Of a stretch of DNA of 64,000 nucleotides, positions 41,643 through 59,442 are shown piece after piece. The notes under the pieces were generated by a model that was not told the origin of the DNA, ran no database searches, and saw only the letters and a list, made by a program, of their open reading frames with translations. The position numbers and the translations under genes are program-made. The stretch spans positions 3,426-67,425 of the forward strand of contig CAZORP010000006.1 of assembly GCA_964582615.1 (NCBI GenBank), read 5' to 3'. The stretch comes from an uncultured Gammaproteobacteria bacterium. GTDB lineage: Bacteria; Patescibacteriota; Patescibacteriia; UBA9934. How positions within the stretch are numbered: position 1 is the stretch's first letter; every line of letters starts with the position of its first letter.

Positions 41643-43002
41643 ATATTTTTCTTAATGTAGCAATTCTTTTCTGTATCGAAGATGAACTTTTATTAACTTC
41701 CTTCATGAAAGCCATAACTTCGTAATGAAATCCGTTATGGATTAGACGTTCGGATAATCGATCTAGCGATGATACGAAGTCGTCTTTTTCCTTATCGTGT
41801 AATCGCTCATGAATTGCCGAAAACTGATATGCTCTAGCTTCTTTAAGAAAATCATCATCAAGATACCAGGAAAAAAGTTTAACCCTTTGAGGATAGGTGA
41901 CCTTTTCCCAATTACAGGTTAAGGCACGATTCAGTAGGGGTAAACCGCGAGCTTTAATTTTCTCCCGCTGATCGCTGACGATTATCTTTGTCACCTCAGC
42001 GATAAAAAGGTTTGATTTGTCTGGATCTTTGTTTGATCCAGGCTGAAGCAAAATATCAAATAGTTTGTATGACCGGTATTCGATCATCTCATCGACAGTT
42101 CTGATAACCACCTTCTTTTGATTGATGGCTAAACCCAAAGCAAGCAGTTTTCTGGAAGCGCAGTAAATGACATGTTCAATTTGATCACGTTTTTTTACAA
42201 TGATTGCCTGGTCATCGGCGTATCGGAAATATTTTGCGCCAATTTCGTCGCAAATTTTCTTGATGTAAATATCGTATTCTTGGAGATAAAAGTTAGCCAA
42301 AATTCGCGAGCAGTCAGACATGGCATCTTGTGGCAACCCTACCGTTTGAGGATTGTAATGATTGATCGACTTGTTCCAGAAATTTAGGAAATGAAAAAGA
42401 AGTGAAAGTTCGTCACGATATTTTCCATCAAAAACTTCTCCTATTTTGCGTTTTAAAATGTCTAAATTAATAGAATCATAAAAATTGGCGATATCTAACT
42501 CAACCACGTATCCCTCGCTAGATTCCTTCAGTGAAACGTAAAGTTTCGCGTTGAAATCCTTGTATGCGATATACCACGCCGTTGGCGAAAACGACCACGA
42601 TGGCATTGATACTGTTGGATCGTAGAGATTTTCAATCTTTTTTTGTATTTCTGCTTCTTCTGCGTCTCTGTAGTTTAGACCACTGATGCTCCAGCCGCCG
42701 AAAGTATTTTCGGTTCTATTTCGAGCAAGTTTATGCTCGAGTCGAATAACGCAATAGTAATAAACGATGTAGTCCCTAATGGTAAAAACAGGAGAGATAC
42801 GAGCAACGCCAGATCCTTTATTGTGAGCAATGTAAAATTCTGGCTTTACTGGATGATATGTTTTGCTTTTAATTGCCGTATAAACCGACTTCAAAAGTTC
42901 CTCTTTTTCTTGGTAGGAAGAGGGGGTATTGAGAGGTAAATTCTGGAATGCTTTCCAGAATTTACGACCAAAAATCTTTTTGAATGATTTATAACTAATC
43001 AT
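41632..43002 (-). CDS. Reverse transcriptase (Abi/UG-like stand-alone RT) embedded between hsdS and hsdR
   Basis: RT motifs: motif 2 region YIAHNKGSGVARISPVFTIRDYIV, motif A LDIANFYDSINLDIL, motif B' GLPQDAMSDCSRILANFYL, motif C FRYADDQAII (YADD), motif D LAINQKKVVIR. About 150 aa of C-terminal extension with no known domain. It overlaps the hsdR start by 11 nt and abuts the hsdS stop. Confidence 0.8.
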   Translation of the reverse strand: MISYKSFKKIFGRKFWKAFQNLPLNTPSSYQEKEELLKSVYTAIKSKTYHPVKPEFYIAHNKGSGVARISPVFTIRDYIVYYYCVIRLEHKLARNRTENTFGGWSISGLNYRDAEEAEIQKKIENLYDPTVSMPSWSFSPTAWYIAYKDFNAKLYVSLKESSEGYVVELDIANFYDSINLDILKRKIGEVFDGKYRDELSLLFHFLNFWNKSINHYNPQTVGLPQDAMSDCSRILANFYLQEYDIYIKKICDEIGAKYFRYADDQAIIVKKRDQIEHVIYCASRKLLALGLAINQKKVVIRTVDEMIEYRSYKLFDILLQPGSNKDPDKSNLFIAEVTKIIVSDQREKIKARGLPLLNRALTCNWEKVTYPQRVKLFSWYLDDDFLKEARAYQFSAIHERLHDKEKDDFVSSLDRLSERLIHNGFHYEVMAFMKEVNKSSSSIQKRIATLRKIYAN

Positions 43003-43015
43003 GTATACGTCAGAC

Positions 43016-44233
43016 CTATCCAAGAACAGTCATCACATTTAGTGACTGACTATATTCCGTGAGGAGATTAATCGATTTATCAATGGAGCCGATCACTGAG
43101 TTAAACAATTTTGTTTTTTCGTTTAAGTAATCAACGATTCTTTTTTGTTCGTTAATTTGAGGTAGAATGATCTTTAGGTTTTCAATCACTCCCATGCCAA
43201 TATTTTGTTGTGTCCCGTAAGACCAAGATAACTTAACCTGATCTTGAAATAATTTTGTTTGTAGAAAGAAATAAAGATATTCAGGCAAAACAACGTCCCT
43301 ATTTGCTCTGATTAGGGCAAGCGGTGACCAGATACTAAATTCCTCGTCAGTTTCAACTAGACCAATTCTTCCGGTTGTTGCGCCAGATTTCACCATAAAA
43401 ATATCACCCCGTTGTGGCTTACATTTTTTGCAGAATTCCTCATGATCTTCACGGCTAATGAATCCACGCTTTTCAGCAAAATCGATCGTGTTGTTTCCTT
43501 GAATTGATTGGGCTGAAAGGAATGGGATACCAGAATCAAGTATTTCCGGTGTCGAGTGTGGTCCGTCAGTAATTTTTGTTTTAACAACTTGTTTCAATGA
43601 ACGAATAAAGAAATCTTTTGGGATTTTTTCGATCCATGCAGTATTACTATTGATAAGTTCGACATCATTATTTAAGCCTCGCGTGATTGCTTGATGAATT
43701 ATGAATGCCCTTTGCTCATTTAGTTTTTGAATGAGCCTTTTTTTGTCTTCTATCAATCGTGTGATGATAGTCGAATTTGAATCAAGTTTTTGTACTACTT
43801 TTTCTTGATCGGCTAATGCCGGTAGTTCAATTTTCTGATTACCAATAAAAGTCCAATTTGCGCGAGGCATTTTAGAACCGTAGGTTGAGTTGTTGACCGC
43901 CTTAATGAAGTCATCAGCTCTCAGTCTGTACGCAAGAAATGCTGGATTAACCTTTTCTTTTTTTGAATTGAGGACCAGAAGTTCGCCCGTACAAACCCCC
44001 TCACTTTTAGCCAATACAACCTTCGCGAGATACGGACGAAGCTTTCCGAATAGAACATCGTCTTTTTGGTAATAACTAGTAACACCATCGGAAACGATTG
44101 GGGTTTCCGATTCAATGATCTTGCCCGTGCCGCTTTCAATATTTTCCAGCCCAAGATACGGCAATCCGTCTTCGGACTGACCTCGAGCTCCACGGAGCGG
44201 GGCAATGTATTTGATCTTGATAGATTCGCTCAT
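43016..44233 (-). CDS. hsdS: Type I restriction-modification S (specificity) subunit
   Basis: Two target-recognition domains separated and followed by conserved coiled-coil repeats (LPALADQEKVVQKLD...; LPQINEQKRIVDYLNE...). AT-rich. Start ATG is 1 nt after the hsdM stop. Confidence 0.9.
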   Translation of the reverse strand: MSESIKIKYIAPLRGARGQSEDGLPYLGLENIESGTGKIIESETPIVSDGVTSYYQKDDVLFGKLRPYLAKVVLAKSEGVCTGELLVLNSKKEKVNPAFLAYRLRADDFIKAVNNSTYGSKMPRANWTFIGNQKIELPALADQEKVVQKLDSNSTIITRLIEDKKRLIQKLNEQRAFIIHQAITRGLNNDVELINSNTAWIEKIPKDFFIRSLKQVVKTKITDGPHSTPEILDSGIPFLSAQSIQGNNTIDFAEKRGFISREDHEEFCKKCKPQRGDIFMVKSGATTGRIGLVETDEEFSIWSPLALIRANRDVVLPEYLYFFLQTKLFQDQVKLSWSYGTQQNIGMGVIENLKIILPQINEQKRIVDYLNEKTKLFNSVIGSIDKSINLLTEYSQSLNVMTVLG

Positions 44234-44234
44234 A

Positions 44235-46247
44235 TTACAAACTTCCCATGAGCGTTGAAATTTCTCGCTCAAGCGTTTCTATTTCTTGTTTGATAGTCTC
44301 AATTGGACGTGGCGCTTCGTACTTATAGAAGAAACGCGTCACTGGGATTTCATAACCAACTCGACCTAGCTTTCCATCCTTGTGATCCGTGTAGGATTCA
44401 TCAATCCACGCATCTGCAACATACGGCCTCACTTCACGATCAAAGTACACTCGAACATCTTCGTTCAGTGGCACGTTTTCGCTATCTCGTAGGGTGCTAT
44501 CGGGTTCGATGTTCCCATCGGCAAGAGTGCAGACATCGGCATTTTCATCGCGTTCACCGAGCATTGATAAGATGAATTTCAGAACGGGTTTCTTAAGTTC
44601 AACACCTTGTTCGTCGCATCGCTTCTTGATCGCCTCGACAAACTTTTCTTGGTTCAAATACACCTCGTCACCGAAATTCTCGATAAGTTGGAGAAGCTTT
44701 TGTTTTTCCGGATCGGGCAAGCGATCCTTGGTCATGAAGATTTTCCAGAACACCTCATGCCCCTTGAGGCGTTGGATGCGCTCGGCTGAGGCCTGGAAGT
44801 TCATGCGCAATGGACGTTCAACGACGATTTGTCGATATCCGAAATCGCTATTCTTGAAGATCTTGGAGTATTCATTTTCGGTAAAATCCTTGTAGAGCTC
44901 AAGAACTTTCGATCGATGCGCTTCGGTGATTTCGTTGCGCTTGTTGCCTAAGCTCTTTCGCATCTTCTCAAGGAAGCCACGGGCATCAATGATTTGAACG
45001 AGACCCTTGCGCTTCTCTTCTTTTCGATTCGTCACGAACCAGAGGTATGTAGGAATGCCTGTGTTGAAGAAGAGTTGATCCGGAAGCGCGACAACCGCTT
45101 CGAGCCAGTCGTGCTCCAAAATCCAGCGACGGATTTCGCTTTCACCTTGACCAGCATCACCCGTGAAGAGCGGCGAACCGTTGAAGACAATGCCGATGCG
45201 CGAGCCTCCTTCACTTTCTGGTCGCATCTTTGAAATAAGGTGCTGGAGGAAGAGGAACTGACCGTCGGATGAGCGTGGAAGCCCCGCGCCAAAACGTCCG
45301 GCGTATCCTCGCTCAGCTTCGCGTTCGACGGCGTCCATGTCTTTCTTCCAGTCCACGCCGAATGGTGGGTTGGTCAGCATGTAGTCAAATTGCGTGCCGA
45401 AGAACTGATCGTTCGAAAGTGTGCTTGCGAGCGAGTGATCCTTTTCGCCACCCTTGATGTTGTCCGGATTTTCACCCTTGATCAGCATGTCGGATTTACA
45501 CATGGCGTAGGTGACCGGATTCAGTTCCTGACCATAAAGATACACGCCAGCATCCTTGTTCACGTCGTTACGGATGTACTCCTTGGCGATAGAAAGCATT
45601 CCACCTGTTCCGCATGCGCAGTCGTAGACGGTCTTGATGATGTGTTCCTTTTTCAGCTTCTCGCGGTCCGGGGCGAAGAGAATTTCGACCATGAGCTTAA
45701 TCACGTCGCGTGGAGTGTAGTGTTCTCCAGCCGTCTCATTGGATTGTTCGGAGAACTTGCGGATGAGTTCTTCAAAGATTGATCCCATCTCGTGATTGTC
45801 GACAACATCGGGATGCAAGTCGACCTTGTTCAATTCCTTGATGATGAGATAGAGCAGGTTGCCGCCCTCGAGCCTCGACAACTGGCGATCGAATTCGAAC
45901 TTTTCAACGATGTCCTCGATATTCGCGCTGAAGCCGCGAAGATAGTGTTTGAAGTTGGCGGCAATGTGGTCTGGATCTTCGAGAAGCTTTTCAAAGTCGT
46001 ATTCGGATACGTTGTAAAAGCCGACTTTCGAAGCGGCTTTTAAGACGGGGTCGATATCAATCTTCGCTTTCAGCTCATTGTATTGTTGGAGTACCTTTGA
46101 CTTTGTGGGTGCGAGAAGAGAATCAAGGCGTTTTACTACGACGAGAGGCAAAATGACATCCTGATATTCGTGTTGCTTCCAACTTCCACGAAGTATCTCG
46201 GCGATGTTCCAGATGAGCTGTGCCTTCTCTCGAAAATTGTTGGTCAT
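44235..46247 (-). CDS. hsdM: Type I restriction-modification M (N6-adenine methyltransferase) subunit
   Basis: DCACGTGGML (motif I, AdoMet binding) and NPPFGVDWKKD (motif IV). HsdM N-terminal domain present. Confidence 0.95.
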   Translation of the reverse strand: MTNNFREKAQLIWNIAEILRGSWKQHEYQDVILPLVVVKRLDSLLAPTKSKVLQQYNELKAKIDIDPVLKAASKVGFYNVSEYDFEKLLEDPDHIAANFKHYLRGFSANIEDIVEKFEFDRQLSRLEGGNLLYLIIKELNKVDLHPDVVDNHEMGSIFEELIRKFSEQSNETAGEHYTPRDVIKLMVEILFAPDREKLKKEHIIKTVYDCACGTGGMLSIAKEYIRNDVNKDAGVYLYGQELNPVTYAMCKSDMLIKGENPDNIKGGEKDHSLASTLSNDQFFGTQFDYMLTNPPFGVDWKKDMDAVEREAERGYAGRFGAGLPRSSDGQFLFLQHLISKMRPESEGGSRIGIVFNGSPLFTGDAGQGESEIRRWILEHDWLEAVVALPDQLFFNTGIPTYLWFVTNRKEEKRKGLVQIIDARGFLEKMRKSLGNKRNEITEAHRSKVLELYKDFTENEYSKIFKNSDFGYRQIVVERPLRMNFQASAERIQRLKGHEVFWKIFMTKDRLPDPEKQKLLQLIENFGDEVYLNQEKFVEAIKKRCDEQGVELKKPVLKFILSMLGERDENADVCTLADGNIEPDSTLRDSENVPLNEDVRVYFDREVRPYVADAWIDESYTDHKDGKLGRVGYEIPVTRFFYKYEAPRPIETIKQEIETLEREISTLMGSL

Positions 46248-46248
46248 A

Positions 46249-47154
46249 TTAGGCGAAGAGTTTTTGGTATCCCTTAAGGGTGAAGACGCGATTACGTTCG
46301 CCGCCGTCCACGATCTCGAGTAAGTGCAAGTCCTCGACGAGACGAGTCATGAGTTTATTAAGCGTGTGATAGGTGATCTTAAACTTTTTTCCATAAGCCG
46401 CCTCAATCTCTCGCACCGTGAATGCCTCGCGCTCCATGAAATACGGAAGGAGCTCAAGTGCTACTTTTTTGGGACGCGTCTCAAGGGAGGCGACGCTGTC
46501 CTTATATCGTGCCTCGATGATGCGGACGGCGTGATAGATGCTCTGCGTACGTTCTTCTGCGCGAAGAATGCTTTGCAAAAATTCATCAGGAGTTGTGTTC
46601 TGATCCTCAGTCATGAATTTCGCAAACGGAAGCATTGGACTTGGAGTCAGGCCAAAATGGACAAACAAAGCGTGAAGCAGTGCGTTCGCCATCACATGGT
46701 TACCTGCACGAAATGGAGCCAGTTTCAAAAAGGCAGTATGGATAAGATGAATCCTTGTGAAGACATCAATTCTCACCCGTCCCACGATTTCATTTATCGT
46801 TTCGTTAAATTCTCCTCCCACTTCATCCGTACGGAATTCACCAGGAAAATATCGGTAGCCGTCGGGATGATCAAAAATCTGTCGATGTAGTTTTTCAAGG
46901 AAAGGCGACCCCATTTCAATCTGCGGGCGCAGGGCAATAAGGGCTGACGCGTATCGCTTTGCACACTCGATATCACCATGAGCACTGGCCTTATTCTCCA
47001 AACGGGCTTCCGTCTGGAATGCCGCTTCGGCCTCATGGGTGAGTAGGAGCCTTGTTGGAGCCGACAACTCCCCCAAAGCCTCTCTCCAGGCACTCAAAAT
47101 ACCTGCAAAAAATGCGGCTTTTCCGATTGCTTCCATGTCTATCGTATTTTCCAC
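46249..47154 (-). CDS. Fic/DOC-like protein with a divergent active-site motif and a C-terminal winged helix; first gene of the hsd operon
   Basis: APFRAGNHVMANALL occupies the place of the Fic motif HPFx(D/E)GNGRxxR (F, G and N kept; the catalytic His is replaced). C-terminal ...LMTRLVEDLHLLEIVDGGERNRVFTLK wHTH. Its stop is 2 nt from the hsdM start. Confidence 0.65.
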   Translation of the reverse strand: MENTIDMEAIGKAAFFAGILSAWREALGELSAPTRLLLTHEAEAAFQTEARLENKASAHGDIECAKRYASALIALRPQIEMGSPFLEKLHRQIFDHPDGYRYFPGEFRTDEVGGEFNETINEIVGRVRIDVFTRIHLIHTAFLKLAPFRAGNHVMANALLHALFVHFGLTPSPMLPFAKFMTEDQNTTPDEFLQSILRAEERTQSIYHAVRIIEARYKDSVASLETRPKKVALELLPYFMEREAFTVREIEAAYGKKFKITYHTLNKLMTRLVEDLHLLEIVDGGERNRVFTLKGYQKLFA

Positions 47155-47484
47155 AATGTAATAAAATCTTCACTTATTTACATTGAGAAGTCTATCACAT
47201 CCTGCATACCAGTCAAGTAATCCGCTATAAAATTACCAAATTTACCCAAGATTCCTTCAATTTCGCAGAAGCCCCATGGGGGTAAGGAAGGGCTGTGAAT
47301 AGCCAATCAAATCGCTTTACGTGAATTGGTTTGTAAGCTATTATTTAGGAGCTTCACTACTCAGCCTAATAAAGGCCGAATTTCGGCTTAACCGGATCGC
47401 GCGCGATAAGCGGTGTCCGGTTAAAACAGTTCTAGCACGATCCGTGCTTGGGCTGGGTAGTGAAGCACCACCGGGCATCGCTTT

Positions 47485-48648
47485 TTGAATTATCGAGCGA
47501 TTCCGGGATGCTTTATGGAATCGACTCTTCTAGAAAAATTACTATCCGTCCCCTCCAGAATTTTCGAACTTGAGAAGCGCGTTTCTTCTTTCAATGTGTT
47601 CGAGGCAACTGGCGCGGTGCGCCGTGAACTTCGGCACTCAGACTTCATCGGTTTCCTTTTTGACCCATCCGAAACGCATGGACTCGATGAGACCCTTTTT
47701 CAAATATTTTGCGAGAGCTTCGGCATAACCATTTCTCAAACTCCAATCATCACCGTATCCCGCGAGTGGGAGCACATCGATATCATGGTTCGCGACCGTG
47801 CGAATAAGGTTATCCTCGTCATCGAAAACAAGATCGACACATCGGAGCATTCAGACCAACTCCAGCGATACCGCAAGATTGTTGACGCCGCGTATCCAGA
47901 TTACGCGCGTCATTATTTTTATCTCACAAAAACAGGAGAGGAGCCGTCAGACAGCCATTGGGCAATTCTGAGTTATGCGGACGTTCGCTCGTTCATGGAG
48001 CGTCTTACTGACGAGTCCGTGAATGGTGACGTCACGACCGTTCTTACCCATTATGCAAACATGATTGAACGCCATTTTATGCCGGATAACGAAATAGCCC
48101 AGCTCTGCCGAAAGATTTACAATGACCACAAAAGAGCGATCGATCTAATCATTGAACATAGACCGGAGGGCGGAGAAGATGTTTTCGATAAGCTCCGTGA
48201 GTTGATCAACCAGTGTCCCGATTTCGAGCTCGACCACTCCGACGTGCACCGCATTCGCTTCGCCGTTCCGGCATGGGACAGTCTTCCCGACATGAAGACT
48301 TCCAACTGGACGCCGAGCAAGCGATTCGTCCTTTTCGAGGCGAAGAACAATGTCGACGGAACCGAACGTGTTCAGCTCAAGTTGTTTCTTGGTCCGACGC
48401 CAAGTAAGATGAGAGAGGAGCTATTCCAGCACGTCCAAGGCGCAAAAGATGCCTTCCGTCAGAGTCGTCGCGAGCTGGGTGAAAAGTGGGCGCAAATTTA
48501 CAACATGGAACTTCTTGGCGCGGACGATGTCCAGCATGACGATAAGCTGAAGATGCTCGAAAACAACTGGAATCACTTTTTACGACAGGATTTTCCGCTC
48601 ATCAATCAGAGCATCCGTGCATTCATCGAGTTACAAGATTCCAAATAA
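47485..48648 (+). CDS. PD-(D/E)XK nuclease-superfamily protein (PDDEXK_4-like)
   Basis: N-terminal FNVFEATGAVRRELRHSDFIGFLFDP...HGLDE, then HIDIMVRD...VIENKID...QLQRY (D, ExK, QxxxY). The start may be M11 (MESTLL). Confidence 0.6.
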   Translation: MNYRAIPGCFMESTLLEKLLSVPSRIFELEKRVSSFNVFEATGAVRRELRHSDFIGFLFDPSETHGLDETLFQIFCESFGITISQTPIITVSREWEHIDIMVRDRANKVILVIENKIDTSEHSDQLQRYRKIVDAAYPDYARHYFYLTKTGEEPSDSHWAILSYADVRSFMERLTDESVNGDVTTVLTHYANMIERHFMPDNEIAQLCRKIYNDHKRAIDLIIEHRPEGGEDVFDKLRELINQCPDFELDHSDVHRIRFAVPAWDSLPDMKTSNWTPSKRFVLFEAKNNVDGTERVQLKLFLGPTPSKMREELFQHVQGAKDAFRQSRRELGEKWAQIYNMELLGADDVQHDDKLKMLENNWNHFLRQDFPLINQSIRAFIELQDSK

Positions 48649-48654
48649 CAGTCT

Positions 48655-50121
48655 ATGCTGACCAAGTCCAACTTCATGCAATTCCTCCGCTGTTCTTGCG
48701 AGCTTTGGCTCGTGAAGCAGCGGCCGGATTTGGTTCCGCCGACCGACCCCGCGCTCCAGCGCATCTTCGACGAGGGAAACGTGGTGGACGCGTGGGCGCA
48801 GAAGCTGTTCCCGGGCGGCGTGAACGTCGACGGGTTCGGCAAGCCAGCCGCTGAGAACACGAAGAAGGCGATCGCCAATGGTGTGACCGTCCTGCTCCAG
48901 CCGACCTTCATGACTTCGCAGCTGTCCTGTCGTTGTGACATCCTCACGAAGAACACCGACGGATCGTGGGACATCTACGAGGTGAAAAGTTCGACGGACG
49001 TGAAGGAAGAACATATTACTGACGTCGCCTTCCAGCGCATCTGCATCGAGGAGGCGGGCGTTCGCATCTCGCGCACGTTCCTCGTCCACGTTAACAACCA
49101 GTACGTTCGCAACGGTGAGATTGATCCCGAACAATTGTTCACGAAGGTCGACATCACGCACCAAGTTGAGAACGTGATGCCGATGGCGAAGAAGGAGATT
49201 CCTCGCGCCCTTGCCGTTCTCGACTGGGACAAGGTGCCGCGGCTCCTGCACGTCATGTCCTGCAACGACCCAGCCGAATGTGAATTCATCGCGTGCTATT
49301 TCAATACCCTTGATGGCGCCGAGAAGTATTCCATCGCCGCATCGCTCCCGAAGGATAAGCTTGTCGGGTTCTTGGAACGCGGACTCATCACGCCCGAGCA
49401 GGTTCCAACCGATGTCATAGCCGAACTTGGCGAGGTGAAGCTTCCTGACGTGAAGAGCGAGCCGACGCTGCATGTCGATAAGGAAGCGATCAAATCCGAA
49501 CTCGGCGGTCTCCAGTATCCGCTCTACTTTTTGGACTACGAAACGTATTTTCCGGCAGTGCCGCTCTTTGACGGCTACCGCCCGTACCAGCACGCGGTGT
49601 TCCAATACTCCGTCCACGTCGTGCGCGAGCCGGGCGCAGAGCCAGAGCATTTCGAATTCCTCGCGGGCGAATTGAAAGACCCCGCGCCGATGGTCGCGGA
49701 GTCCCTCAAGAAACATATCGGTGATACGGGAAGCGTGATTGTATGGAACGCCCGCTTCGAAGCCTCGCGCAATGCGGAAATTGGCGAGCACCTGCCGGAG
49801 TTTGCGAACTTCATGACGGACATCAACGACCGCATGTACGACTTGATGATGATCGTGAAGAAGGGTTACTACGTCGACTCCCGTTTTGGTGGCAGCGCGT
49901 CCATCAAAAAAGTTTTGCCAGTTGTTTGCCCCGAGCTTTCGTACAACGACCTCGCCATCCACGAGGGCGGCACGGCATCCGCAAGCTGGGCGACGCTCAC
50001 GAACGCCGCGATTCCCGCCGAGGAACGCGAGCAACTACGCCAGAACATGTTGGAGTATTGCTCGTTGGACACCTTCGCGATGTTTGCCATCTTCAAGAAG
50101 CTACAGATTGCGTTGTCGTAG
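48655..50121 (+). CDS. DUF2779-type protein: Cas4/RecB-like PD-(D/E)XK nuclease fused to a DEDD (DnaQ-like) exonuclease
   Basis: N-terminal SNFMQFLRCSCELWL and DIYEVKSSTD (ExK). C-terminal YFLDYETYFPAVP (Exo I D-x-E), VIVWNARFEA (Exo II) and YDLMMIVKK (Exo III). It starts 7 nt after the upstream nuclease gene. Confidence 0.7.
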   Translation: MLTKSNFMQFLRCSCELWLVKQRPDLVPPTDPALQRIFDEGNVVDAWAQKLFPGGVNVDGFGKPAAENTKKAIANGVTVLLQPTFMTSQLSCRCDILTKNTDGSWDIYEVKSSTDVKEEHITDVAFQRICIEEAGVRISRTFLVHVNNQYVRNGEIDPEQLFTKVDITHQVENVMPMAKKEIPRALAVLDWDKVPRLLHVMSCNDPAECEFIACYFNTLDGAEKYSIAASLPKDKLVGFLERGLITPEQVPTDVIAELGEVKLPDVKSEPTLHVDKEAIKSELGGLQYPLYFLDYETYFPAVPLFDGYRPYQHAVFQYSVHVVREPGAEPEHFEFLAGELKDPAPMVAESLKKHIGDTGSVIVWNARFEASRNAEIGEHLPEFANFMTDINDRMYDLMMIVKKGYYVDSRFGGSASIKKVLPVVCPELSYNDLAIHEGGTASASWATLTNAAIPAEEREQLRQNMLEYCSLDTFAMFAIFKKLQIALS

Positions 50122-51834
50122 ACTTCGACGTTGTCGCCTTGCGTTCTGCTGATCGTTCAATACTTCGCAACCGTGCCCGCTCATGGTATTCGGCACGGGT
50201 TAATTGTTTTACGGGTGGCGTGGGTACAGCTCGCCACCGACCAGGGCCATCCCACTGCACGCCGGCGTGTACGAATCGTTCGTTCATCACTCGTTGAAGC
50301 TCCGGGAACTTTTTCATCGCATCCATTTCAAATTCAACGTTCTTCCAAATTTGTTGGAGCTCGATTTTCTCGATGTGGTACAAATCTCCGACCGCCATCC
50401 CTATCTCAATCTTCGCCCGGTTCTTCCCATGCACGGATAGCACAAGCGTGGTCAGCGCATCGACGAGGTCATCGTGCCTCGTGCTTCCAAAGTTGACGAT
50501 TTGATCTATCAGCTCCTTTGGGCAGTTCTCCGGGAAAAGTATCTTGCCCGTCTTGATGAGCCCACTGATACCGTAGAGTCTGTCGCGCTTGTCCATGCGG
50601 CCTGGGAGATACTCCGTCACGCGGCGCACGCCGCGTACCTTGAGATGTTGTCCGAAGACGCCTTGGTACCCTACGCTTTCGTAAAACACTTCGACGTTTC
50701 CTATTCCGCCAAGCTTCTTGATCATCTCCATGCACACGCTCGCCGAGGGATCGAATTCCAGTTGTTTATTTACAATGCCTGGGAGAATATAAATCTTTTG
50801 GTCTTCGCCCCTGCCTTCGACGATTGCCGGAATCATCGACGTACTGTCTCCGCCCGGACTCATTGACCGTGCGAGGTCGACCCCTATCGCCCTCATCGTC
50901 ACGCCGGAGAATTGGTGGTCAGGTTCGTAGTAGAAGATATCGGATTTCGTGATGATCTGCTCGTCGGGCGGAATGATCTCGAGCTGGTATTCCTGCCGCC
51001 AGGTCTTGGTAGACGGGAATGACCGCTTGAACGCGGCGATGCTCGCCTTGTCGGGGAACTTCCCAGGCCAGGCACAGACGCCCTTCTTGCCAATGAGCGG
51101 GCATTTGATCACCTGCGCGTCGAACGTTCCCGCCTTCACTTTGGCGATAATGCGGTTCGGCAGGCTGTCCTCGTGGAGGTTGTTCGCGATCATGATGACG
51201 CGCGTGCCGATGTCGCCAACGCCGAGCAAGTCGCTATTAAACCAATCCTCCAGCTTGTCGCGCGATTCCTGCATGCGCACCGAAGCAACATCCTCGATGT
51301 CGTCGAGGATGAGCACGTCGGGACGGTAATGCTTGAAGCGCACGCCGCGCATCGACTGCTCGACGGAAATTCCCGCGATCTGCGCGTCGTATTTCTGGAA
51401 CGTCAGGGCGGTGGAGTTCCACGGGGTCGTTTCCTCGGATACCGCACCGAAGTCATTTTGGAGCATCGTGTTCGTCTCAAACTCCCGCTTGATCGCGTCA
51501 ATGAACTTCTTCGTCTGCTCGATGGTCTTTCCGACGATCAGGACGAAGTGTTTCTGTTGCTCGCCAAGAATCGACCAGATGGGGTACGACATCGTGCAGA
51601 TCGTGCTCTTCGCGCTCCCGCGGAACGTCATCGCGACCGCAAACCTGATCTTGTCGTTTTGCGTCAGATCGAAGAGCCTGTGGTGGATGTCTGCGGATGG
51701 ATACTTGATGTAGTCGCCGAAGTACGTTCCGAAGAAGGCCTTGTGCGACTTTCTCGCGAGTTCAATTCTCGCGGTCTTGTTGTTCATCACCAGATCCAGC
51801 ATCTGCTGGTCTAGGGGATTCTTGCTTGTCATAT
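50093..51834 (-). CDS. terL: Phage terminase large subunit
   Basis: ATPase Walker A-like FRGSAKST and Walker B VLILDDIED, plus a C-terminal RNase-H-like nuclease domain. The ORF's Arg-rich N-terminal 77 aa are probably not translated (start at MTSKNPL). GC-rich. Confidence 0.8.
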
Positions 51835-52253
51835 GGTTCTGGGGTGAGAGAAATGAGTCCGAGATTCTGGTAAGAGTTGGTGAGCTTTTCCTTCTCATCG
51901 TCCGTGAGATTTTGCTTTGTTGGGGTCGTAATCTGCACCTTGTTCGCGTACGCCTTGTGGCGGCTGCGCAACCAAAACGAAATCGCGGCGAAGTTTTGTT
52001 CCTTGATCGCGCTGATGAGTTGGGATTCTGCCATGTCGTTGATGAATCCCGTTCCTTCGCCAAGTGCCTCCTCGGTTTGCGCGGCGAATGTCACATCCTC
52101 CGCGATCCATCGGTAATACGTCGCGCGGGCGACGCCGAGCTTCTCGCACGCGACCTGGACGATCGGGATCTTGCGAAGGTGGTCGACAAGAAGCTTTTTC
52201 TGCTCTTCCTGCCGCTTGTCGATGAGCGGGCTATTTCGCTTTGTCCTTGGCAT
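51762..52253 (-). CDS. terS: Phage terminase small subunit (HTH type)
   Basis: ACEKLGVARATYYRWIAED HTH near the N-terminus. It overlaps the terL start. Confidence 0.65.
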   Translation of the reverse strand: MPRTKRNSPLIDKRQEEQKKLLVDHLRKIPIVQVACEKLGVARATYYRWIAEDVTFAAQTEEALGEGTGFINDMAESQLISAIKEQNFAAISFWLRSRHKAYANKVQITTPTKQNLTDDEKEKLTNSYQNLGLISLTPEPYDKQESPRPADAGSGDEQQDREN

Positions 52254-53034
52254 AAGTCGCGATCTTTACGGCTTTGATGCCGGTTTTCTTTTCGAACCGT
52301 TCGATGCCGGCGGCAACATATTCGGGATCGATTTCGACGCCGAAGCAACGGCGTCCCGTATCCTCGGCTGCAATAATTGCGGTGGAACTTCCGAGGAAGG
52401 CGTCATATACGACGTCACCGATCTGCGATGAGTTCAAGATCATCCGACGAATAAGCCCAACCGGCTTCATAGTGGGATGAATACCGGATTTCGAGGGTTT
52501 CGGGTACACAACCACGGATTTGTCCTTCGACTTGAAGAACCGGTGCGTGCCATACCAGCCATATGCGATGAGCTCGTGCTGACCGATGTAGTCGAGCCGC
52601 CCAATTACCGCGTGGTGCTTTACCCATACGAGCAACTGCGTGAACGTCATGCCCGCGTCGAGCATCCCTTCGCGCATGGCGAAGATCATCTTGTCGGCGT
52701 TGAACAGGTACGCGGCGTTCTTTTTCGCCATGTGCGGAATGACCGCTTCGAGCCATGCCTTCGTGAAGGCGCGGTACTGCTCGTCCGTCTGTTCGTGATC
52801 GTTCTGAATTTCTTTCTCCTTCGCGATCTTGATGTTCAGTCCTTGTTTGCTCGTTGCGTACGCGACTCCGTAAGGTGCGTCCGCGCAGATAAGCGCGACG
52901 CGTTCGCTACCAAGAAGTGCGGATACAAGACCCGCGTCGCAGCTGTCGCCGCAAGCGATGCGATGGTTGCCAAGAGAAAAAATGTCTCCGTAACTAATTG
53001 ATAAGTTTTGCTTTGTCTCCGGTGAGGGTTTCAT
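52231..53034 (-). CDS. Phage-type DNA methyltransferase (beta-class N6A/N4C, DNA_methylase N-4/N-6 family)
   Basis: Motif IV ICADAPYG comes before motif I VYDAFLGSSTAIIAA (beta-class order). Confidence 0.85.
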   Translation of the reverse strand: MKPSPETKQNLSISYGDIFSLGNHRIACGDSCDAGLVSALLGSERVALICADAPYGVAYATSKQGLNIKIAKEKEIQNDHEQTDEQYRAFTKAWLEAVIPHMAKKNAAYLFNADKMIFAMREGMLDAGMTFTQLLVWVKHHAVIGRLDYIGQHELIAYGWYGTHRFFKSKDKSVVVYPKPSKSGIHPTMKPVGLIRRMILNSSQIGDVVYDAFLGSSTAIIAAEDTGRRCFGVEIDPEYVAAGIERFEKKTGIKAVKIATYAKDKAK

Positions 53035-54298
53035 ATCTGTCGATAATTACTTGAGTGAACACAGGCGACTGTTCGATCATGTACGCTTTACGCTTCATTT
53101 GTTCGCACGAGGTCATGAGAGACCCCGATCCCGCACACAAATCCAACACGCAATCGCCAATTTTTGTGCATCGGCGTAGTGGTTTTTCGGCCAAGGTCGT
53201 CGGCTTTTCGGTAGGATGGGTGTAGTCTTGTCCGTTCACGCGTTTCGCGAGCCAAATATCCATCACGTCCCAGATATCGTCGATTGTGCGGTTGCCGGGT
53301 TGTACGTCGCGATTCAAAATTTCCGTGACGCTCGTGATCGCGCTATTGAGAAATGGTTTCCCAATGGTTCCGTACGCGCACGGCTCGTACCCCTTGTTAA
53401 ACGCGACCTGCGGAGTCATGTTGAACGAGTTCTTTACCCATAGGCACGTGCGCCTGTTCATGATGCCGAGTTCGCGGTACAGCTCTTGCAACATCCCAAC
53501 GTAGTTCTGGTCACACCACGAAAAGATGTGTGCGTCTTCAGCGAGAACCGCTTTTCCGTTTTCCAAACACGTCTTCAGGAACGCGCGATATTCGTCGTAC
53601 GTTTTCGCGTCGTTCACCTCGCCGCTGTATTTACCCTTCGTGCTAATGCCCTTGGAATAATCCAGCTTGATGTTGTACGGAAAGTCTGTGTAGAACATTT
53701 GGATCTTCGCGTCGCCGACAACCCGCTTCACGTTGTCGAGTACGGTTGAGTCCGCGCACAAGACGCGATGGTTTCCAAGTTGGTACAGCTGCCCATTCTT
53801 CACCCGCGTCGACTTCGCCTCCTTGACGGCGTGCTCCACGTCGAAGTTATCGTCCTCGGTGGAAAGGGAGTCGCCCCAGATGTCGTTGAGGTCGCCGTCG
53901 TCGAACCCGATGTCCAGCAGTTCGCCGATGTCGAACGCTTTCAGTAATTCGTAATCCCACGCGCCGGTGTTTTTGTTGAGACGAATTAAAAGCTCGCGTT
54001 CCTTTTCGAGGCTCGGAATGTTTACGAAGACAACGGGAACCTCAGTCATGCCGAGATCCTTGGCACACTGGAGTCTGAAGTGGCCGCCGATCAAAATGTT
54101 CTCACGCCCCTTGGCACAGTTCGCGATCAGTGGATCAACGAGGCCGAACTTACGGATGCTCTCGCGGAGCTTTTCCGCCGCGGGTTCGTCCCACGTGCGC
54201 GGGTTCTTCTCGTTCGCCTGCAATGAATTAATGGGTACGTTCACGATCCGGAGATCGCGTGCGGCCGTTTTTGACCGCACTAAAGAGGAACTCTTCAT
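52994..54298 (-). CDS. ParB-like nuclease domain fused to a DNA methyltransferase
   Basis: N-terminal ParB/Srx-like region (IVNVPINSLQANEKNPRTW...GGHFRLQCAKDLG). C-terminal MTase with motif IV YTDFPYN and motif I VLDLCAGSGSLMTS. Confidence 0.85.
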   Translation of the reverse strand: MKSSSLVRSKTAARDLRIVNVPINSLQANEKNPRTWDEPAAEKLRESIRKFGLVDPLIANCAKGRENILIGGHFRLQCAKDLGMTEVPVVFVNIPSLEKERELLIRLNKNTGAWDYELLKAFDIGELLDIGFDDGDLNDIWGDSLSTEDDNFDVEHAVKEAKSTRVKNGQLYQLGNHRVLCADSTVLDNVKRVVGDAKIQMFYTDFPYNIKLDYSKGISTKGKYSGEVNDAKTYDEYRAFLKTCLENGKAVLAEDAHIFSWCDQNYVGMLQELYRELGIMNRRTCLWVKNSFNMTPQVAFNKGYEPCAYGTIGKPFLNSAITSVTEILNRDVQPGNRTIDDIWDVMDIWLAKRVNGQDYTHPTEKPTTLAEKPLRRCTKIGDCVLDLCAGSGSLMTSCEQMKRKAYMIEQSPVFTQVIIDRYETLTGDKAKLIN

Positions 54299-54614: not shown

Positions 54615-54923
54615 TTGTCTGTGGATAAGTTATGTCACACGAAGTTGGAGTGCATACCGTTCTGGGAATGGAACGAAACGATGAAACCTGATACTGTTTC
54701 GTTAAATGTCCTTGATTTTGAAGCCTTTATGAATTCCGGTGAAGAGACACTTGTCAGCCTGATTGACACACATCTTTCCAGCGAACAGCGGACGCTCATG
54801 TCGTCAATTGATCTCGAAGCTGAAGTCGCGGATATTCTCGAAACCTTGAAAACGGAAGGGCTCGTTTCGTTTGGCGAACAAGTTGATGATTCCTATGCAC
54901 ATCAAGAAACTCAAGAAGAGTAA
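54615..54923 (+). CDS. Small strongly acidic protein, translationally coupled to the downstream ATPase
   Basis: 102 aa from a TTG start, or 80 aa from the internal ATG (MKPDTVSLNV...), very D/E-rich. It overlaps the first codons of the AAA_13 gene. An AT-rich promoter-like region lies upstream. Confidence 0.4.
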   Translation: MSVDKLCHTKLECIPFWEWNETMKPDTVSLNVLDFEAFMNSGEETLVSLIDTHLSSEQRTLMSSIDLEAEVADILETLKTEGLVSFGEQVDDSYAHQETQEE

Positions 54924-57267
54924 CAACGTATTCTCGTACGGCTCTTTTGAGTGGGATGCTATTAATCCTCAAAAACTACTCAATAACGATGGAAAACTGG
55001 TTGACAGTAAAAACGAATTTGAAAAATGCAACGTTCTCTTCGGAGAGAACGGGAACGGAAAATCAAAGTTGGTAAAAATTTTCCGTGCGCTGCACGATCC
55101 GCATCGGTCGTTGGAAAAGCATCGTGATTTGCAGGGACAGCCTCAGGAGATCGAAATTTTGTTTGACGACGACACGGTGACAACCAATGCTGGGAATGGG
55201 TGGTCGGACAGAAGAGCAGAAGGTAAATTTGTCATATTCGACAAGCATTACGTCGATGCGTTCGTGCATTCGCCGGGAACGCATGACGGAGACACTCCGC
55301 AACGAAAACAACAGCGAGGGAAAAACATCGTCTACCTTGGTAATTTCGGTAAATACAATGAAGAAATCGACAAACTTAACGACCTCAAAAACAAAATCAG
55401 GGATGAAAATGAGCGCGCCCTAAAAGCCCAGCATCAAATCATCAGTGGCATCATCACGCCCCATGGTTACACCATGGAACTCATTGGCCAAAGCCGGGCC
55501 GCCATCGAAACGGCCGATGTCGCGGGATTGGTTGAACTAAAGGATGCAAAGTTGAAAGTTGTAGAAGAGGTGACAAAAATACAGACCGCGATTTCCCAAT
55601 CCCAAAAAGTCAGCAATCTCGAGGCGCTCGCACTCCAATCGAGAAGCATTTTTTCTTTGACGGAAGAAGTCGGCGGAGTTGTTGCCGTCGTCAAAACGAC
55701 CGACCTGTTTGCGTTCACGGTCTCGGCAGGTATTCAAAAGACGATTCAGAAAATTGCAGGTAAAAAAGAATTCATTCACCAAGGCGTAGGATTGCTGACC
55801 AAGGACGCGGATACATGTCCATTTTGCGAACAATCAATCAGCGACTCTACGCATAAGCAAATCATCGACGACTACCAATCGATTTTCACGGAAACCTTCG
55901 AGCAGGAACAAATGCGAATTCGTCGCTTACTATCTTCGTACAAATCGCAACTTATAGCGCTGAGAGACCTGCAAATCACGAGCTCTGAAGCGTCGAAAAT
56001 CACAGCAGCATCTCCTTTCTTTTCCGATTTACCTGCATTGCCAAATCTTGCGCCTCCGGAAGAGGATCGCGAGATTCTTGAGGCGGAAATTTCCCTTGTC
56101 GAACAGAAGCTTAGCCAACTTCTTGAGAAGATCGACCCTCCCAACCAGGAACGTATTCGCGTAATTGCAGAAGCGACAGAACAGAGAATCGTCGAATATA
56201 ACCGCATCGCCGGAGAGGTAAATACAAAGATTGACGAATTGAAGAAAAATGCTCTCTCTGGCAAATTGAACGATCAGCTTGAATTATTAAAAAAGCGCCA
56301 TGTCGAATTAGACCAAAATATTTTTTTCATCGAGAACCAAAAGCCATTGCTTCGGTACTTTGCTTCCATCGACGACGACAAAAAGAACAAGAAAGTGGTA
56401 GCGGACCTCGAGGAGGTTTACCAAAACATGAAGGTGGCAATCGTGGACAAATTTACGTCCTTCGTCACGGATTACTTCTCGCTCATCGAGGATATCTTGG
56501 GACGCATCAGCCCAGGAATGGGAATCTTCGACATCACTGGCCAAGCTACTTATACCCGAGTCGGAAAAGAGCCGGCGCAATGTGGATTTCGAATTACGTA
56601 CAACGGTAATGAGTGTTCTGAGGGGTTGAGTGATGGCGAGAGACAGGCGGTCGCGCTTGCATATTTCTTTGCTCAGCTGGAAAAGCTCGCCGACAAGGAT
56701 AGGATCATCATCTTTGATGACCCCATCACGAATTTCGACACCGGAAAGCGGAAGGCGACGGCTGAGCTGATTTACAAAAAGTCCCTGGAATTCGCACAAA
56801 CGTTTGTGTTCACATGCGATCCGCTGTTCAGGGAATTCTGCCTCAAGGCAGGCACGGTGAAGGCGTATTCGATATACCATACTGGTGGCTCATCGGCTGT
56901 TTATTTTGTACCGAAGCATATCGCGCGAATCCAAGACGCATTCGAGGAGAGTATGCGCGGAATGGATTCTCTAACTGGAACGCCGGAGAATGTCGTTATA
57001 TTTGGTCAGAAGCTTCGTTTTTGTCTGGAAACGAAGATCAAGGAAGATTACTTCGGGTACTCAAAGGACAGCCTCCGTAATATGTTGGAAACTGTCTCCG
57101 CTCAAGGCGGACAGAAATTCCAAGATCTCATTTCAAACATGGATGAGATCGTGGAGATTTACAATTACTGCAACACTGGAGGGCTCGCGCATTATCCCAG
57201 GGATGGTTCTACAAGCTGGACTGAACTCAAAGGAATGGTTGCCAGATATTTTGCACTTGGCCTTTAA
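54871..57267 (+). CDS. AAA_13/ABC-type ATPase with a coiled-coil insert and CxxC zinc-hook motif (RloC/PrrC-like anticodon-nuclease architecture)
   Basis: Walker A GENGNGKSK near the N-terminus. A roughly 500-aa coiled-coil insert with DTCPFCEQ in the middle. ABC signature LSDGERQAVALAYFFAQ, Walker B IIIFDDP and D-loop near the C-terminus, followed by a 170-aa C-terminal domain. Confidence 0.65.
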   Translation: MANKLMIPMHIKKLKKSNNVFSYGSFEWDAINPQKLLNNDGKLVDSKNEFEKCNVLFGENGNGKSKLVKIFRALHDPHRSLEKHRDLQGQPQEIEILFDDDTVTTNAGNGWSDRRAEGKFVIFDKHYVDAFVHSPGTHDGDTPQRKQQRGKNIVYLGNFGKYNEEIDKLNDLKNKIRDENERALKAQHQIISGIITPHGYTMELIGQSRAAIETADVAGLVELKDAKLKVVEEVTKIQTAISQSQKVSNLEALALQSRSIFSLTEEVGGVVAVVKTTDLFAFTVSAGIQKTIQKIAGKKEFIHQGVGLLTKDADTCPFCEQSISDSTHKQIIDDYQSIFTETFEQEQMRIRRLLSSYKSQLIALRDLQITSSEASKITAASPFFSDLPALPNLAPPEEDREILEAEISLVEQKLSQLLEKIDPPNQERIRVIAEATEQRIVEYNRIAGEVNTKIDELKKNALSGKLNDQLELLKKRHVELDQNIFFIENQKPLLRYFASIDDDKKNKKVVADLEEVYQNMKVAIVDKFTSFVTDYFSLIEDILGRISPGMGIFDITGQATYTRVGKEPAQCGFRITYNGNECSEGLSDGERQAVALAYFFAQLEKLADKDRIIIFDDPITNFDTGKRKATAELIYKKSLEFAQTFVFTCDPLFREFCLKAGTVKAYSIYHTGGSSAVYFVPKHIARIQDAFEESMRGMDSLTGTPENVVIFGQKLRFCLETKIKEDYFGYSKDSLRNMLETVSAQGGQKFQDLISNMDEIVEIYNYCNTGGLAHYPRDGSTSWTELKGMVARYFALGL

Positions 57268-57270
57268 TGA

Positions 57271-57780
57271 TCAGGAGGCGAGGTTTGGATTCTCTTCCTT
57301 CAAAAACACGAAATACCAGAAGTGCTTGCCGTTGCGAATTTCACGGGCTTTGAGTTCTCCGATGCGCACTTTCTTTGCCACAGTCGAATGATGCCAGCCG
57401 AACTTTTTCTTAAAATCGTCTGACGAATACCAGCTCTTACGGTCGGTCGCAACGGTACCCGGAATCACGCCATCTTCGACCGCCTTTTGGCACGGGCGAC
57501 ACTTGATGCCGAACCTGTCGAACCAGCCCTCGCCGCCTTCTAAGTGTTGGTAGCAAACGATACAGTTGTATGTACCATTTGAAGGAACGGCGAAGCCATT
57601 AGGTTCCGCAACGAGCCGCTCTTTCCATCGTTCGATCCTCGTGTGGACGTTCAGCAGAGCGCGGTAGAAACCGAGCAGATTTTCTGAGTATTCCAGTGCC
57701 TGGGCGTCGGTCAGGTCCTGGTCGTACTCCTTCTTCCAAAGCTCCTTAAACGACTGAATCCGTTCGTCATTTGTGCGCAT
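57271..57780 (-). CDS. Zn-ribbon + HTH_17 (excisionase/MerR-like) DNA-binding protein
   Basis: CxxC...CxxC (NCIVCYQ...KCRPCQK) then C-terminal WYSSDDFKKKFGWHHSTVAKKVRIGELKAREIRNGKHFWYF, which fits the HTH_17 pattern. Probable start MRTNDERIQ, internal to the 242-aa ORF. A truncated paralog lies at 61798..62058. Confidence 0.5.
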   Translation of the reverse strand: MRTNDERIQSFKELWKKEYDQDLTDAQALEYSENLLGFYRALLNVHTRIERWKERLVAEPNGFAVPSNGTYNCIVCYQHLEGGEGWFDRFGIKCRPCQKAVEDGVIPGTVATDRKSWYSSDDFKKKFGWHHSTVAKKVRIGELKAREIRNGKHFWYFVFLKEENPNLAS

Positions 57781-57847
57781 AGGATTATTGTGAAAAGCCC
57801 TTGAAACCATCGTATTCCTGATTTGAGACACAAGCCATTCTCGTGTC

Positions 57848-58148
57848 TCATTTGTCTCATTTCGATGAGACCCGGGTGCCAGTTTGACCCCTCCAAAAGA
57901 CCCCTTAAACATTGTCGAAAGGTGAGTTCGAGACCCGTACGCCGAGCCAAGTGGAAACGGCTGGAGCAATCTGGTCGTTTTTACTTTTGTATCAGTCATT
58001 ATTAAGTGGTTCTAACCTTGCGGAATCGTTCTCAAGAGCCTTTTGCGATTCGAAGATAGGAACGAGCCAAGGATTGGGGTTAATGCTGAGCTTTCCGTTC
58101 AAAAGTGTCGGGTTCGAACTTGAAACAGTTCGAATTTTGTTTTATGCT
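57848..58148. repeat. Copy A of a conserved structured non-coding element upstream of the Zn-ribbon regulator (with a 130-bp insertion relative to copy B)
   Basis: Shares about 85% identity over roughly 110 nt with 62119..62259. Hairpin GTCTCAtttcgATGAGAC. Two GAGACCCG(G/T)(G/A)(T/C)GCC direct repeats and repeated GACCCCT motifs. A terminal hairpin GGTTCGAACttgaaacaGTTCGAAtt followed by ttttgtttta on the plus strand. Confidence 0.6.
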
Positions 58149-59360: not shown

Positions 59361-59442
59361 AGAATGCGGGCGATCTATGCAAACTGCGCCAATTCAGTCT
59401 CCAGTCCCGCCCAGTTTGTGGTTCTGAACGCGTCCAGAGTGC

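Follow-up and report, generated by a model that had tools for sequence, protein, structure and literature searches.

A conserved RNA leader, an interchangeable nuclease gene and a constant DUF2779 gene on a putatively phage-derived element

The two nuclease genes and their leader

In the 64,000 nucleotides (nt) of contig CAZORP010000006.1 analysed here (assembly GCA_964582615.1; hereafter the window), two nuclease genes stand in tandem behind a promoter and a structured RNA leader. Gene 1 encodes a PD-(D/E)XK nuclease of the PADLOC family PDC-S26, and gene 2 a DUF2779 protein that joins a Cas4-like nuclease domain to a DEDDy exonuclease domain. An earlier note, made from the letters and open reading frames (ORFs) of this DNA, had suggested that the two could be a dedicated effector pair. 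We found that the conserved unit is a different one, namely a promoter with its leader, a nuclease gene that is swapped between loci and a constant DUF2779 gene, as seen in the architecture, its recurrence, marks of mobility, intact motifs and purifying selection. The arrangement is, with high confidence, a modular slot and not a dedicated pair.

The ORF of gene 1 as listed runs from a TTG at 47485 to 48648 (387 amino acids, aa). Since the conserved leader RNA ends at 47514 and the alignment of relatives begins at the ATG at 47515, we place the start there, which leaves 377 aa. The product matches PDDEXK_4 (PF14281; 6.7e-25, 88.5 bits against a Pfam cut-off of 22.3) and, near full-length, the PDC-S26 model PDLC04977 of PADLOC (4.8e-109; ORF residues 13–381 against profile positions 7–396 of 400). 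Eleven other PDC-S26 models match as well, and PADLOC lists the family as a single-gene candidate. The motifs from which the earlier note had recognised a PD-(D/E)XK protein, D89, E104-N-K106 and Q115..R118-Y119 (numbered from the methionine at 47515), are invariant columns among 27 sequences, as is E38. An AlphaFold2 (AF2) model with a predicted local distance difference test score (pLDDT) of 84.9 makes the alpha-beta-beta-beta-alpha-beta core visible; a fold search with this model matched PD-(D/E)XK enzymes weakly only. The ratio of nonsynonymous to synonymous substitutions (dN/dS) is 0.07–0.13. We found no experimental validation of PDC-S26 in the literature, where it receives a passing mention in one preprint.

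Gene 2 follows the TAA of gene 1 after 6 nt (CAGTCT), a spacing in keeping with the tight coupling noted earlier, and encodes 488 aa. Profile searches bear out its reading as a DUF2779 protein with a Cas4-like and a DnaQ-type exonuclease part: PF11074 (DUF2779) is matched at 4.5e-38 (130.8 bits against a gathering score of 23.3; residues 291–416, profile positions 1–126 of 126) and PF01930 (Cas_Cas4) at 4.3e-5 (24.1 bits against a cut-off of 22.7; residues 91–177). The residues typical of Cas4/RecB-type nucleases (D95, E109-V-K111, Q127 and Y150) and of DEDDy exonucleases (D294-Y-E296, E369, D396 and Y468..D472), which include the motifs named before, are invariant among 34–35 sequences. Three cysteines, C13, C203 and C209, are kept in at least 90% of the aligned sequences; the fourth position, C214, holds Cys in 17 of 34 sequences and Tyr, His or Gln in the rest. 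The AF2 model is confident (pLDDT 93.1, predicted template modelling score 0.85), and the top Foldseek matches of its N-terminal half are Cas4 (8d3l, 1.8e-5), Exo5, SSO0001, RecE and the AdnAB nuclease domains, with a Foldseek probability of 1.0 for Cas4 (8d3l, 7mi4, 4ic1), Exo5 and RecE. Foldseek gave no confident DEDD match for the other half, for which the 3'-5' exonuclease clade assignment comes from published work (PMC3985635). Profile searches of PDB sequences with the gene 1 and gene 2 families returned no match. The dN/dS of gene 2 is 0.06–0.09, so that both genes are under purifying selection (0.06–0.13).

The sharp rise in GC at gene 2 is real, from 0.49 to 0.57 overall and from 0.57 to 0.77 at third codon positions (GC3). 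Because gene 2 is also the GC3-richer gene in five of six paired loci, the step is mostly intrinsic to the two genes, and for the same reason we discarded it as proof that gene 2 was acquired apart from gene 1. The 467-aa antisense ORF across gene 2, already held to be an artefact, is one of its GC3 of 0.77, since the length of this ORF tracks GC3 among orthologues: it measures 460–491 aa at GC3 of at least 0.70 (the exception being L112, with 140 aa) and 66–344 aa below 0.70. At its 3' end gene 2 overlaps the convergent terminase gene by 29 nt (50093–50121; 36 nt in L107 and 44 nt in L108), which leaves no space for a terminator. One IMG/VR relative (L131, 8657–11479) has a DUF2779 ORF with an in-frame N-terminal extension of about 455 aa, either a fusion of an upstream partner or an assembly error; neither this extension nor several upstream ORFs of no recognised family had a Pfam match.

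Conservation extends over about 230 nt upstream of gene 1 in each of the seven paired loci that were compared (the window, L009, L015, L018, L105, L107 and L108), the swapped-order L105 among them. These nucleotides hold a sigma-70-like promoter and a leader (table 1) that folds as a four-way junction and whose P3 hairpin, P4 hairpin and UUAAAACA junction hardly vary. Its minimum free energy is -86 kcal/mol (z = -7.98 against shuffles). A covariance model built from four sequences scores 79–192 bits on the plus strand against 18–39 bits on the minus strand, and finds the leader before PDC-S26 genes, before GmrSD in L001, L002, L005, L097 and L112, and before another ORF in L007. A divergent leader, type B (L015, L105, L018), ends in a canonical terminator hairpin with a U-run about 25–35 nt 5' of the ATG; the model made for it also matches L004, where the leader precedes a 357-aa PD-(D/E)XK-like ORF unrelated to gene 1. 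Altogether, 14 loci carry a leader, before PDC-S26, GmrSD and two further unrelated cargo genes, and both promoter boxes are kept in 14 of 14, whatever the cargo.

The structure is corroborated by covariation. Among ten type-A leaders, in an alignment that leans slightly toward structure through having been fitted to the covariance model, 96.2% of cells are paired, compared with 84.0% after shuffling (0 of 500 shuffles reach the observed value) and 34–44% when slid. Compensatory changes occur at 19 of 44 pairs, the 18-bp closing stem accounting for 11 of these. RNAalifold on a MAFFT alignment of both leader types missed this stem, because its arms differ completely in sequence; the covariance-model alignment resolved it. 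Against Rfam nothing reached the gathering score (best E = 0.65, on the wrong strand), and three leader core patterns searched in IMG/VR matched one contig. A 55-aa ORF at 47321–47488 was rejected as a gene, as it overlies the leader, whose alignment gaps are not multiples of three. Both covariance models failed to find the leader upstream of 75 of 75 solo PDC-S26 genes; the leader therefore belongs to the slot and not to the PDC-S26 family.

Neighbours of the two genes and the modular slot

Approached from gene 2, gene 1 is a rare neighbour. Species-representative genomes gave 14 gene-2 loci, one of them with gene 1 (L009, the window's counterpart); nine loci of further gene-2 proteins at 45–71% identity and 31 loci in IMG/VR gave none. 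Gene 1 is thus present at 1 of 54 loci reached through gene 2. Even among gene-2 orthologues 70–86% identical the neighbours differ and both flanks vary, and those at 85–86% (L001, L002, L112) have GmrSD where gene 1 stands. From one locus to the next, homology sets in at the ATG of gene 2, after spacers of 5–18 nt that are pyrimidine-rich and carry no Shine-Dalgarno motif.

The same-strand gene that abuts gene 2, mostly at -29 to +30 nt, belongs to at least ten unrelated families. It is GmrSD / HEC-05 / HEC-06 in L001, L002, L005, L006, L097 and L113 (and, by size and synteny only, in L112), a type I HsdR in L003 (166–175 nt away), a type III Res in L004 and L105, and a type IIG enzyme in L007. 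PDC-S26 takes the place in the window, L009, L015, L018, L107 and L108, and stands at 164 nt in L077. Elsewhere we found Avs4 (L115; 1961 bits), the GajB of Gabija (L118, L121), PDC-S11 (L116), PDC-S14 (L117), a PIF1-type helicase (L114), Fic (L104) and AAA_13 (L111), and in other loci RtcB, WYL, DUF2130, MetK or proteins of no recognised family. The DUF2779 relatives lie beside restriction or other defence genes in most loci examined, are not scattered through housekeeping contexts and do co-occur with gene-1 relatives, as the earlier note's view of a defence neighbourhood would have it. The order, too, is variable: three loci have the restriction-modification (R-M) operon, DUF2779, leader and cargo in that sequence (L105, L016 and L106: type III R-M, gene 2, 284 nt, gene 1, terminase large subunit, TerL), and in L105 the 284-nt gap holds gene 1's own promoter and leader. 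On the other side of gene 2, two distant lineages have a protein of about 355–363 aa on the same strand after a gap of 5–14 nt (L100, 11443–12510; L103, 9476–10567), which may be a recurrent partner; neither protein has a Pfam match, nor the L100 protein a PADLOC match.

Approached from gene 1, the picture depends on distance. Among its relatives in 80 metagenomic loci, DUF2779 is a neighbour in five (L015, L016, L017, L018 and L077). All four with at least 45% identity (L015–L018) adjoin it, and adjacency was confirmed in L105, L107 and L108; of the distant PDC-S26 relatives (31–39%), 75 of 76 have no DUF2779 neighbour. That the two genes form a dedicated defence system in which each requires the other is very unlikely, even if part of the evidence runs its way. 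DUF2779 lies beside every closer gene-1 relative, in both gene orders; L077 is an independent distant pair (33% identity for gene 1, 34% for gene 2); the spacer is 6 nt; and the pairwise divergences of gene 1 and gene 2 correlate at r = 0.93 over 36 comparisons, more tightly than those of GmrSD and gene 2 (r = 0.60). Given this co-divergence and the constant presence of DUF2779 beside relatives of at least 45% identity, a specific tie between the two genes is possible in this subclade. Yet the dedicated pair must contend with the single paired locus in 54, the breadth of upstream families and the GmrSD of the closest orthologues. In the tree, gene-2 copies with gene 1 are intermingled with copies that lack it, the distant PDC-S26 genes are nearly all solo, in agreement with their single-gene listing, gene 1 of L105 lies downstream of gene 2 under a promoter and leader of its own, and the same leader drives GmrSD. 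The proposal of a dedicated two-gene effector pair was thus not upheld. We read the pattern as one PDC-S26 subclade endemic to the slot of this element family, which is therefore always near DUF2779, while DUF2779 is independent of PDC-S26.

The integrated element and a proposed role for gene 2

The defence context described before is there, the pair being flanked by a type I R-M operon (left) and by TerL and methylases (right), but the island is more precisely an integrated element. It spans about 23.9 kb between 63-nt direct repeats at a tRNA-Asn gene, identical at 58 of 63 positions, and judged by its sequence it is a phage-derived element loaded with defence cargo in a candidate phyla radiation (CPR), Uhrbacteria-like chromosome. 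This follows from the attachment (att) repeats at the tRNA, from the serine integrase, TerL, the gene resembling a terminase small subunit (TerS-like) and the DNA methyltransferases (MTases), and from the GC3 contrast, housekeeping genes having about 0.41 and genes between the repeats 0.50–0.77. The element carries no structural genes, and no capsid or P4 genes were seen in its backbone. ClpB, PriA, AlaRS, MetRS and an M17 peptidase mark the window as chromosomal; relatives of its proteins carry Patescibacteria names, and L009, a near-identical locus, comes from a Candidatus Uhrbacteria metagenome-assembled genome (MAG).

Table 1. Positions of the genes, RNA features and repeats in the window, with the basis of each assignment
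Feature	Position	Strand	Basis
tRNA-Asn (GTT), integration target	35531..35605	+	ARAGORN; Rfam tRNA 69.9 bits
attL: left 63-nt repeat, last 8 nt of the tRNA plus 55 nt	35598..35660	.	repeat search; 92% identical to 59442–59504
Large serine recombinase (integrase), backbone	36240..37562	-	Pfam Resolvase, Recombinase, Zn_ribbon_recom; phrog_95 2.2e-69
DUF5655 / PADLOC PDC-S18, cargo, candidate defence gene adjoining the integrase	37682..38638	+	PDC-S18 1e-103; Pfam DUF5655
Type I R-M operon, cargo: HsdR 38688–41642, reverse transcriptase (RT) 41632–43023, HsdS 43016–44272, HsdM 44235–46247	38688..46247	-	Pfam HsdM_N/N6_Mtase, Methylase_S, RVT_1; PADLOC REase_I
Fic-like protein, cargo, divergent from gene 1	46249..47154	-	weak PADLOC SoFic 5.4e-12, C-terminal part only
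Conserved sigma-70-like promoter, TTTACG-N17-TATTAT	47316..47344	+	promoter scan
Structured RNA leader, about 165 nt: 18-bp closing stem, three internal hairpins, invariant UUAAAACA, 3' hairpin with U-run, then ATG	47349..47514	+	minimum free energy, covariance model, covariation
Gene 1: PD-(D/E)XK nuclease, PDDEXK_4 / PADLOC PDC-S26, interchangeable slot cargo	47515..48648	+	profiles, motifs, AF2 model, dN/dS
Gene 2: DUF2779, Cas4-like PD-(D/E)XK domain (aa ~1–215) and DEDDy exonuclease domain (aa ~285–488), constant gene	48655..50121	+	profiles, residues, AF2, Foldseek, dN/dS
TerL, convergent with gene 2; ORF to 52063, likely start near 51832	50093..51832	-	phrog_38 6.8e-77; Terminase_6C and termin_lrg_T7 weak
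Helix-turn-helix (HTH) protein, TerS-like	51762..52253	-	HTH_Tnp_1_2; weak terminase small-subunit PHROGs
Two DNA MTases, backbone: 52231–53034 and ParB-N-fused MTase 52994–54298	52231..54298	-	Pfam N6_N4_Mtase, ParB_N; phrog_498
AAA_13 ATPase / PADLOC PDC-S06, cargo, second variable slot	54871..57267	+	Pfam, PADLOC
242-aa backbone gene of no recognised family	57271..57999	-	homologues in L002, L009, L113, L120, L122, L123, L126
attR: right 63-nt repeat, right end of the element	59442..59504	.	repeat search

Across loci, a conserved backbone carries variable defence cargo at fixed positions. Gene 2 keeps company with the integrase, TerL, TerS-like and MTase backbone at identities of 34–86%, the arrangement taking at least two forms: integrase homologues lie near it in L002, L006, L007, L097, L105, L108–L110, L113, L114, L122, L123 and L126, and TerL is syntenic with it in L001, L002, L004, L007, L009, L107, L108, L112 and L114 and rearranged in L109, L110, L113 and L122. 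The adjacency of cargo and gene 2 persists when a rearrangement puts the TerL block on the other side.

What gene 2 does for such an element, or for its cargo, can be weighed from this context. Taken as a whole, the explanation we prefer, with guarded confidence, is a modular operon on a phage-derived element that would work as follows. The leader, with its 3' hairpin and U-run immediately ahead of the start codon, probably controls when a potentially toxic endonuclease is made; gene 1 is probably an effector that works by itself, a DNA endonuclease that cuts invading DNA; and gene 2, on the same transcript, is probably translationally coupled to it (6-nt spacer, no Shine-Dalgarno motif). Gene 2 would then serve as a generic processor of DNA ends, with its Cas4/RecB-type domain working 5'->3' and its DEDDy domain 3'->5', degrading the ends left by whichever endonuclease sits upstream. 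This last step, a post-cleavage exonuclease role suggested by domains and position, is the tentative part of the scheme, and we lean slightly away from it. Bolder still would be to regard the RNA and DUF2779 as one constant chassis of a plug-and-play defence operon, with the RNA serving either as a sensor or attenuator that infection would open or as a partner, acting in trans, of the Cas4-like protein, and with DUF2779 completing the breakdown of DNA that the plugged-in endonuclease has nicked or cut. This is speculative and rather improbable; if true, such a chassis could replace the RecBCD/AddAB-type degradation of restricted DNA, provided that these small genomes lack those enzymes.

The main rival holds that gene 2 is a backbone gene for the element's own DNA metabolism (end resection, replication restart, or packaging with the terminase) and that the cargo hotspot merely adjoins it. 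Its co-occurrence with the rest of the backbone, across 34–86% identity, speaks for this rival; two gene-2 copies occur in one Uhrbacteria MAG (L002, L009) and in one IMG/VR contig (L116, L122), each in backbone context, the gene 2 fold is like that of RecE, Exo5 and AdnAB, exonucleases of recombination, and conserved genes flanking hotspots are well established (PMC9122126). Several observations sit poorly with it. In L100, L102, L103, L104 and L111 gene 2 stands next to defence genes, and neither an integrase nor a terminase lies within 7–10 kb; the bond between cargo and gene 2 outlasts the rearrangements of the TerL block; and no single-strand annealing partner or replication gene was seen beside gene 2. 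Nor is gene 2 a phage gene in the usual sense, an identity that we rejected: it has no PHROG family and 0 matches in 50,697 cultured phage genomes, and among the viral sets it was found only in IMG/VR contigs bearing the same island backbone. We judge an element-metabolism role for gene 2 to be possible but unlikely.

A second alternative makes gene 2 an ordinary repair nuclease, encoded in the chromosome of small-genome bacteria, next to which islands tend to insert; it appears extremely improbable. DUF2779 is indeed very widespread in Patescibacteria (more than 3,148 matches), a Mycoplasma member is quasi-essential in JCVI-syn3.0 (PMC13621843), and one flank is housekeeping in L103 and L104 (ribosomal protein L33; DnaE with an M23 peptidase). 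In the window, though, gene 2 lies inside the att-bounded element with a foreign GC3 (0.77 against 0.41), and the variation of both flanks among close orthologues and the double copies per MAG or contig speak against a fixed chromosomal place.

The modular operon remains our preferred reading, and several points besides the co-divergence of the two genes weigh against it. The sample of about 60 loci was gathered by sequence similarity search and is not random, and the MAG labels are inconsistent. Some upstream neighbours, namely RtcB, WYL, MetK and DUF2130, are not DNA endonucleases. The quasi-essentiality of the Mycoplasma protein, in another lineage, points to core DNA metabolism over defence (PMC13621843), and together with the non-nuclease neighbours (RtcB, WYL, MetK) it cautions against a purely defensive gene 2. 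The post-cleavage role and an element-internal one (recombination, replication, packaging) are not told apart by these data.

Other parts of the element, and its surroundings, are of interest in their own right. The RT inside the type I R-M operon is of the DRT type RT_UG13b (PADLOC, 2e-122) and shares a few bases with the start of HsdR and with the stop of HsdS. In L009 it is 95% conserved; in L108 a 445-aa protein resembling tetratricopeptide repeats replaces it. The Fic-like gene is kept in these same two loci and not in the other paired ones. The second variable slot, after the ParB-fused MTase, holds AAA_13 / PDC-S06 in the window and in L108 a cyclic-oligonucleotide-based antiphage signalling system (CBASS; CD-NTase and Cap15, L108 17992–19486). 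To the right of PDC-S06, inside the element, lie two genes of no recognised family; the 242-aa gene had no Pfam, PHROG or PADLOC match. A direct repeat of about 106 nt, 89% identical, occurs at 57845–57950, inside the element, and at 62117–62222, outside it; it contains a hairpin, GTCTCAYTTYGATGAGAC, and a stretch like a tRNA 3' end (…GAGTTCGAGACCCGTACGCCGAGCCA), and could be a second att site or a small RNA. Just outside attR is an AbiJ_NTD4 / PDC-S32-like candidate defence gene (60771–61607). Contigs whose gene 2 is 70–86% identical to that of the window (L001–L008) bear names from several groups (Parcubacteria, Uhrbacteria, Gammaproteobacteria, Lentisphaerae and Micavibrio), which would mean either that the element crosses phyla or that the contigs are mis-binned or mislabelled.

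Novelty and comparison with known systems

The CPR/Patescibacteria make up a large share of bacterial diversity and have tiny genomes. To our knowledge, their defence is poorly charted. A high density of defence systems has been reported for them (PMC12259885), and defence hotspots in phage-derived elements are already known. Both protein families were known before, and the pair does not amount to a new two-gene system. The earlier note did not recognise the locus as a named system, a view that was not borne out: gene 1 is a PDC-S26 match and the DUF2779 architecture has been published (PMC3985635, PMC13621843); the pair should not enter catalogues as a new two-gene system. Apparently undescribed are the positional rule by which, in CPR mobile elements, many defence genes share DUF2779 as a constant 3' partner, the family to which the element belongs, and the structured leader RNA. 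Should the modular reading be true, DUF2779, widespread and uncharacterised, would gain a testable role as a generic DNA-end nuclease tied to restriction-type enzymes, and the leader would be a new structured RNA linked to the control of toxic nucleases. The slot between leader and DUF2779 would also become a discovery tool, pointing to candidate defence genes such as the 357-aa (L109), 681-aa (L100) and 259-aa (L119) ORFs.

With PDC-S26, gene 1 shares nearly its full length and the invariant D89/E104/K106 core; the family is mostly solo, whereas the window's subclade is always beside DUF2779 and behind a leader that solo genes lack. Gene 2 has the two-domain architecture and the conserved D, E, K and DEDD+Y residues of the DUF2779 / UU173 family, in which the combination of a Cas4/DUF83-like nuclease and an RNase H-fold 3'-5' exonuclease (clade F.17) was noted in 2014 (PMC3985635) and the same residues were found in the Mycoplasma protein MMSYN1_0389, analysed in 2026 (PMC13621843). 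It scores 55.9 bits against the NCBIfam UU173 model, below the cut-off of 225. Mycoplasma DUF2779 proteins are of about 650 aa and are discussed as quasi-essential and chromosomal, whereas the gene 2 protein has 488 aa, and its gene sits on a mobile element with positional ties to defence genes.

In its N-terminal fold and active site gene 2 resembles Cas4, including solo-Cas4, and it keeps at least three of the four Fe-S cysteines; it differs in its DEDDy fusion and in the fourth cysteine, conserved only at 50%, and scores 18.5 bits against TIGR00372 (cas4), below the cut-off of 65. The window has no CRISPR array, and no cas gene (cas1, cas2) was found among its ORFs scanned. Genomes of the CPR and of DPANN hold a disproportionate number of solo-Cas4 genes, which in some DPANN genomes adjoin R-M genes (PMC5704561). 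Fusions of UvrD with a Cas4-like domain (pfam12705), proposed as ancillary partners of several defence systems, type III R-M and Dcm-Vsr among them (PMC5704561), likewise join a Cas4-family nuclease to a second DNA-processing activity beside various defence systems. Their partner domain is a helicase and not a DEDD exonuclease, however, they belong to another Pfam family, and no conserved RNA leader has been reported for them.

The arrangement as a whole recalls the hotspots of P2 phages and P4 satellites, flanked by conserved core genes (PMC9122126): here, too, an integrated phage-related element has core genes flanking interchangeable defence positions, of which there are two, 5' of gene 2 and after the ParB-fused MTase. 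The element of the window differs in its CPR host and in its backbone of serine integrase, TerL, TerS-like gene, two MTases and DUF2779. It differs further in that the cargo sits between a promoter with its RNA leader and the nuclease gene, with junctions of 5–18 nt, and would therefore be expressed as one operon with parts of the backbone.

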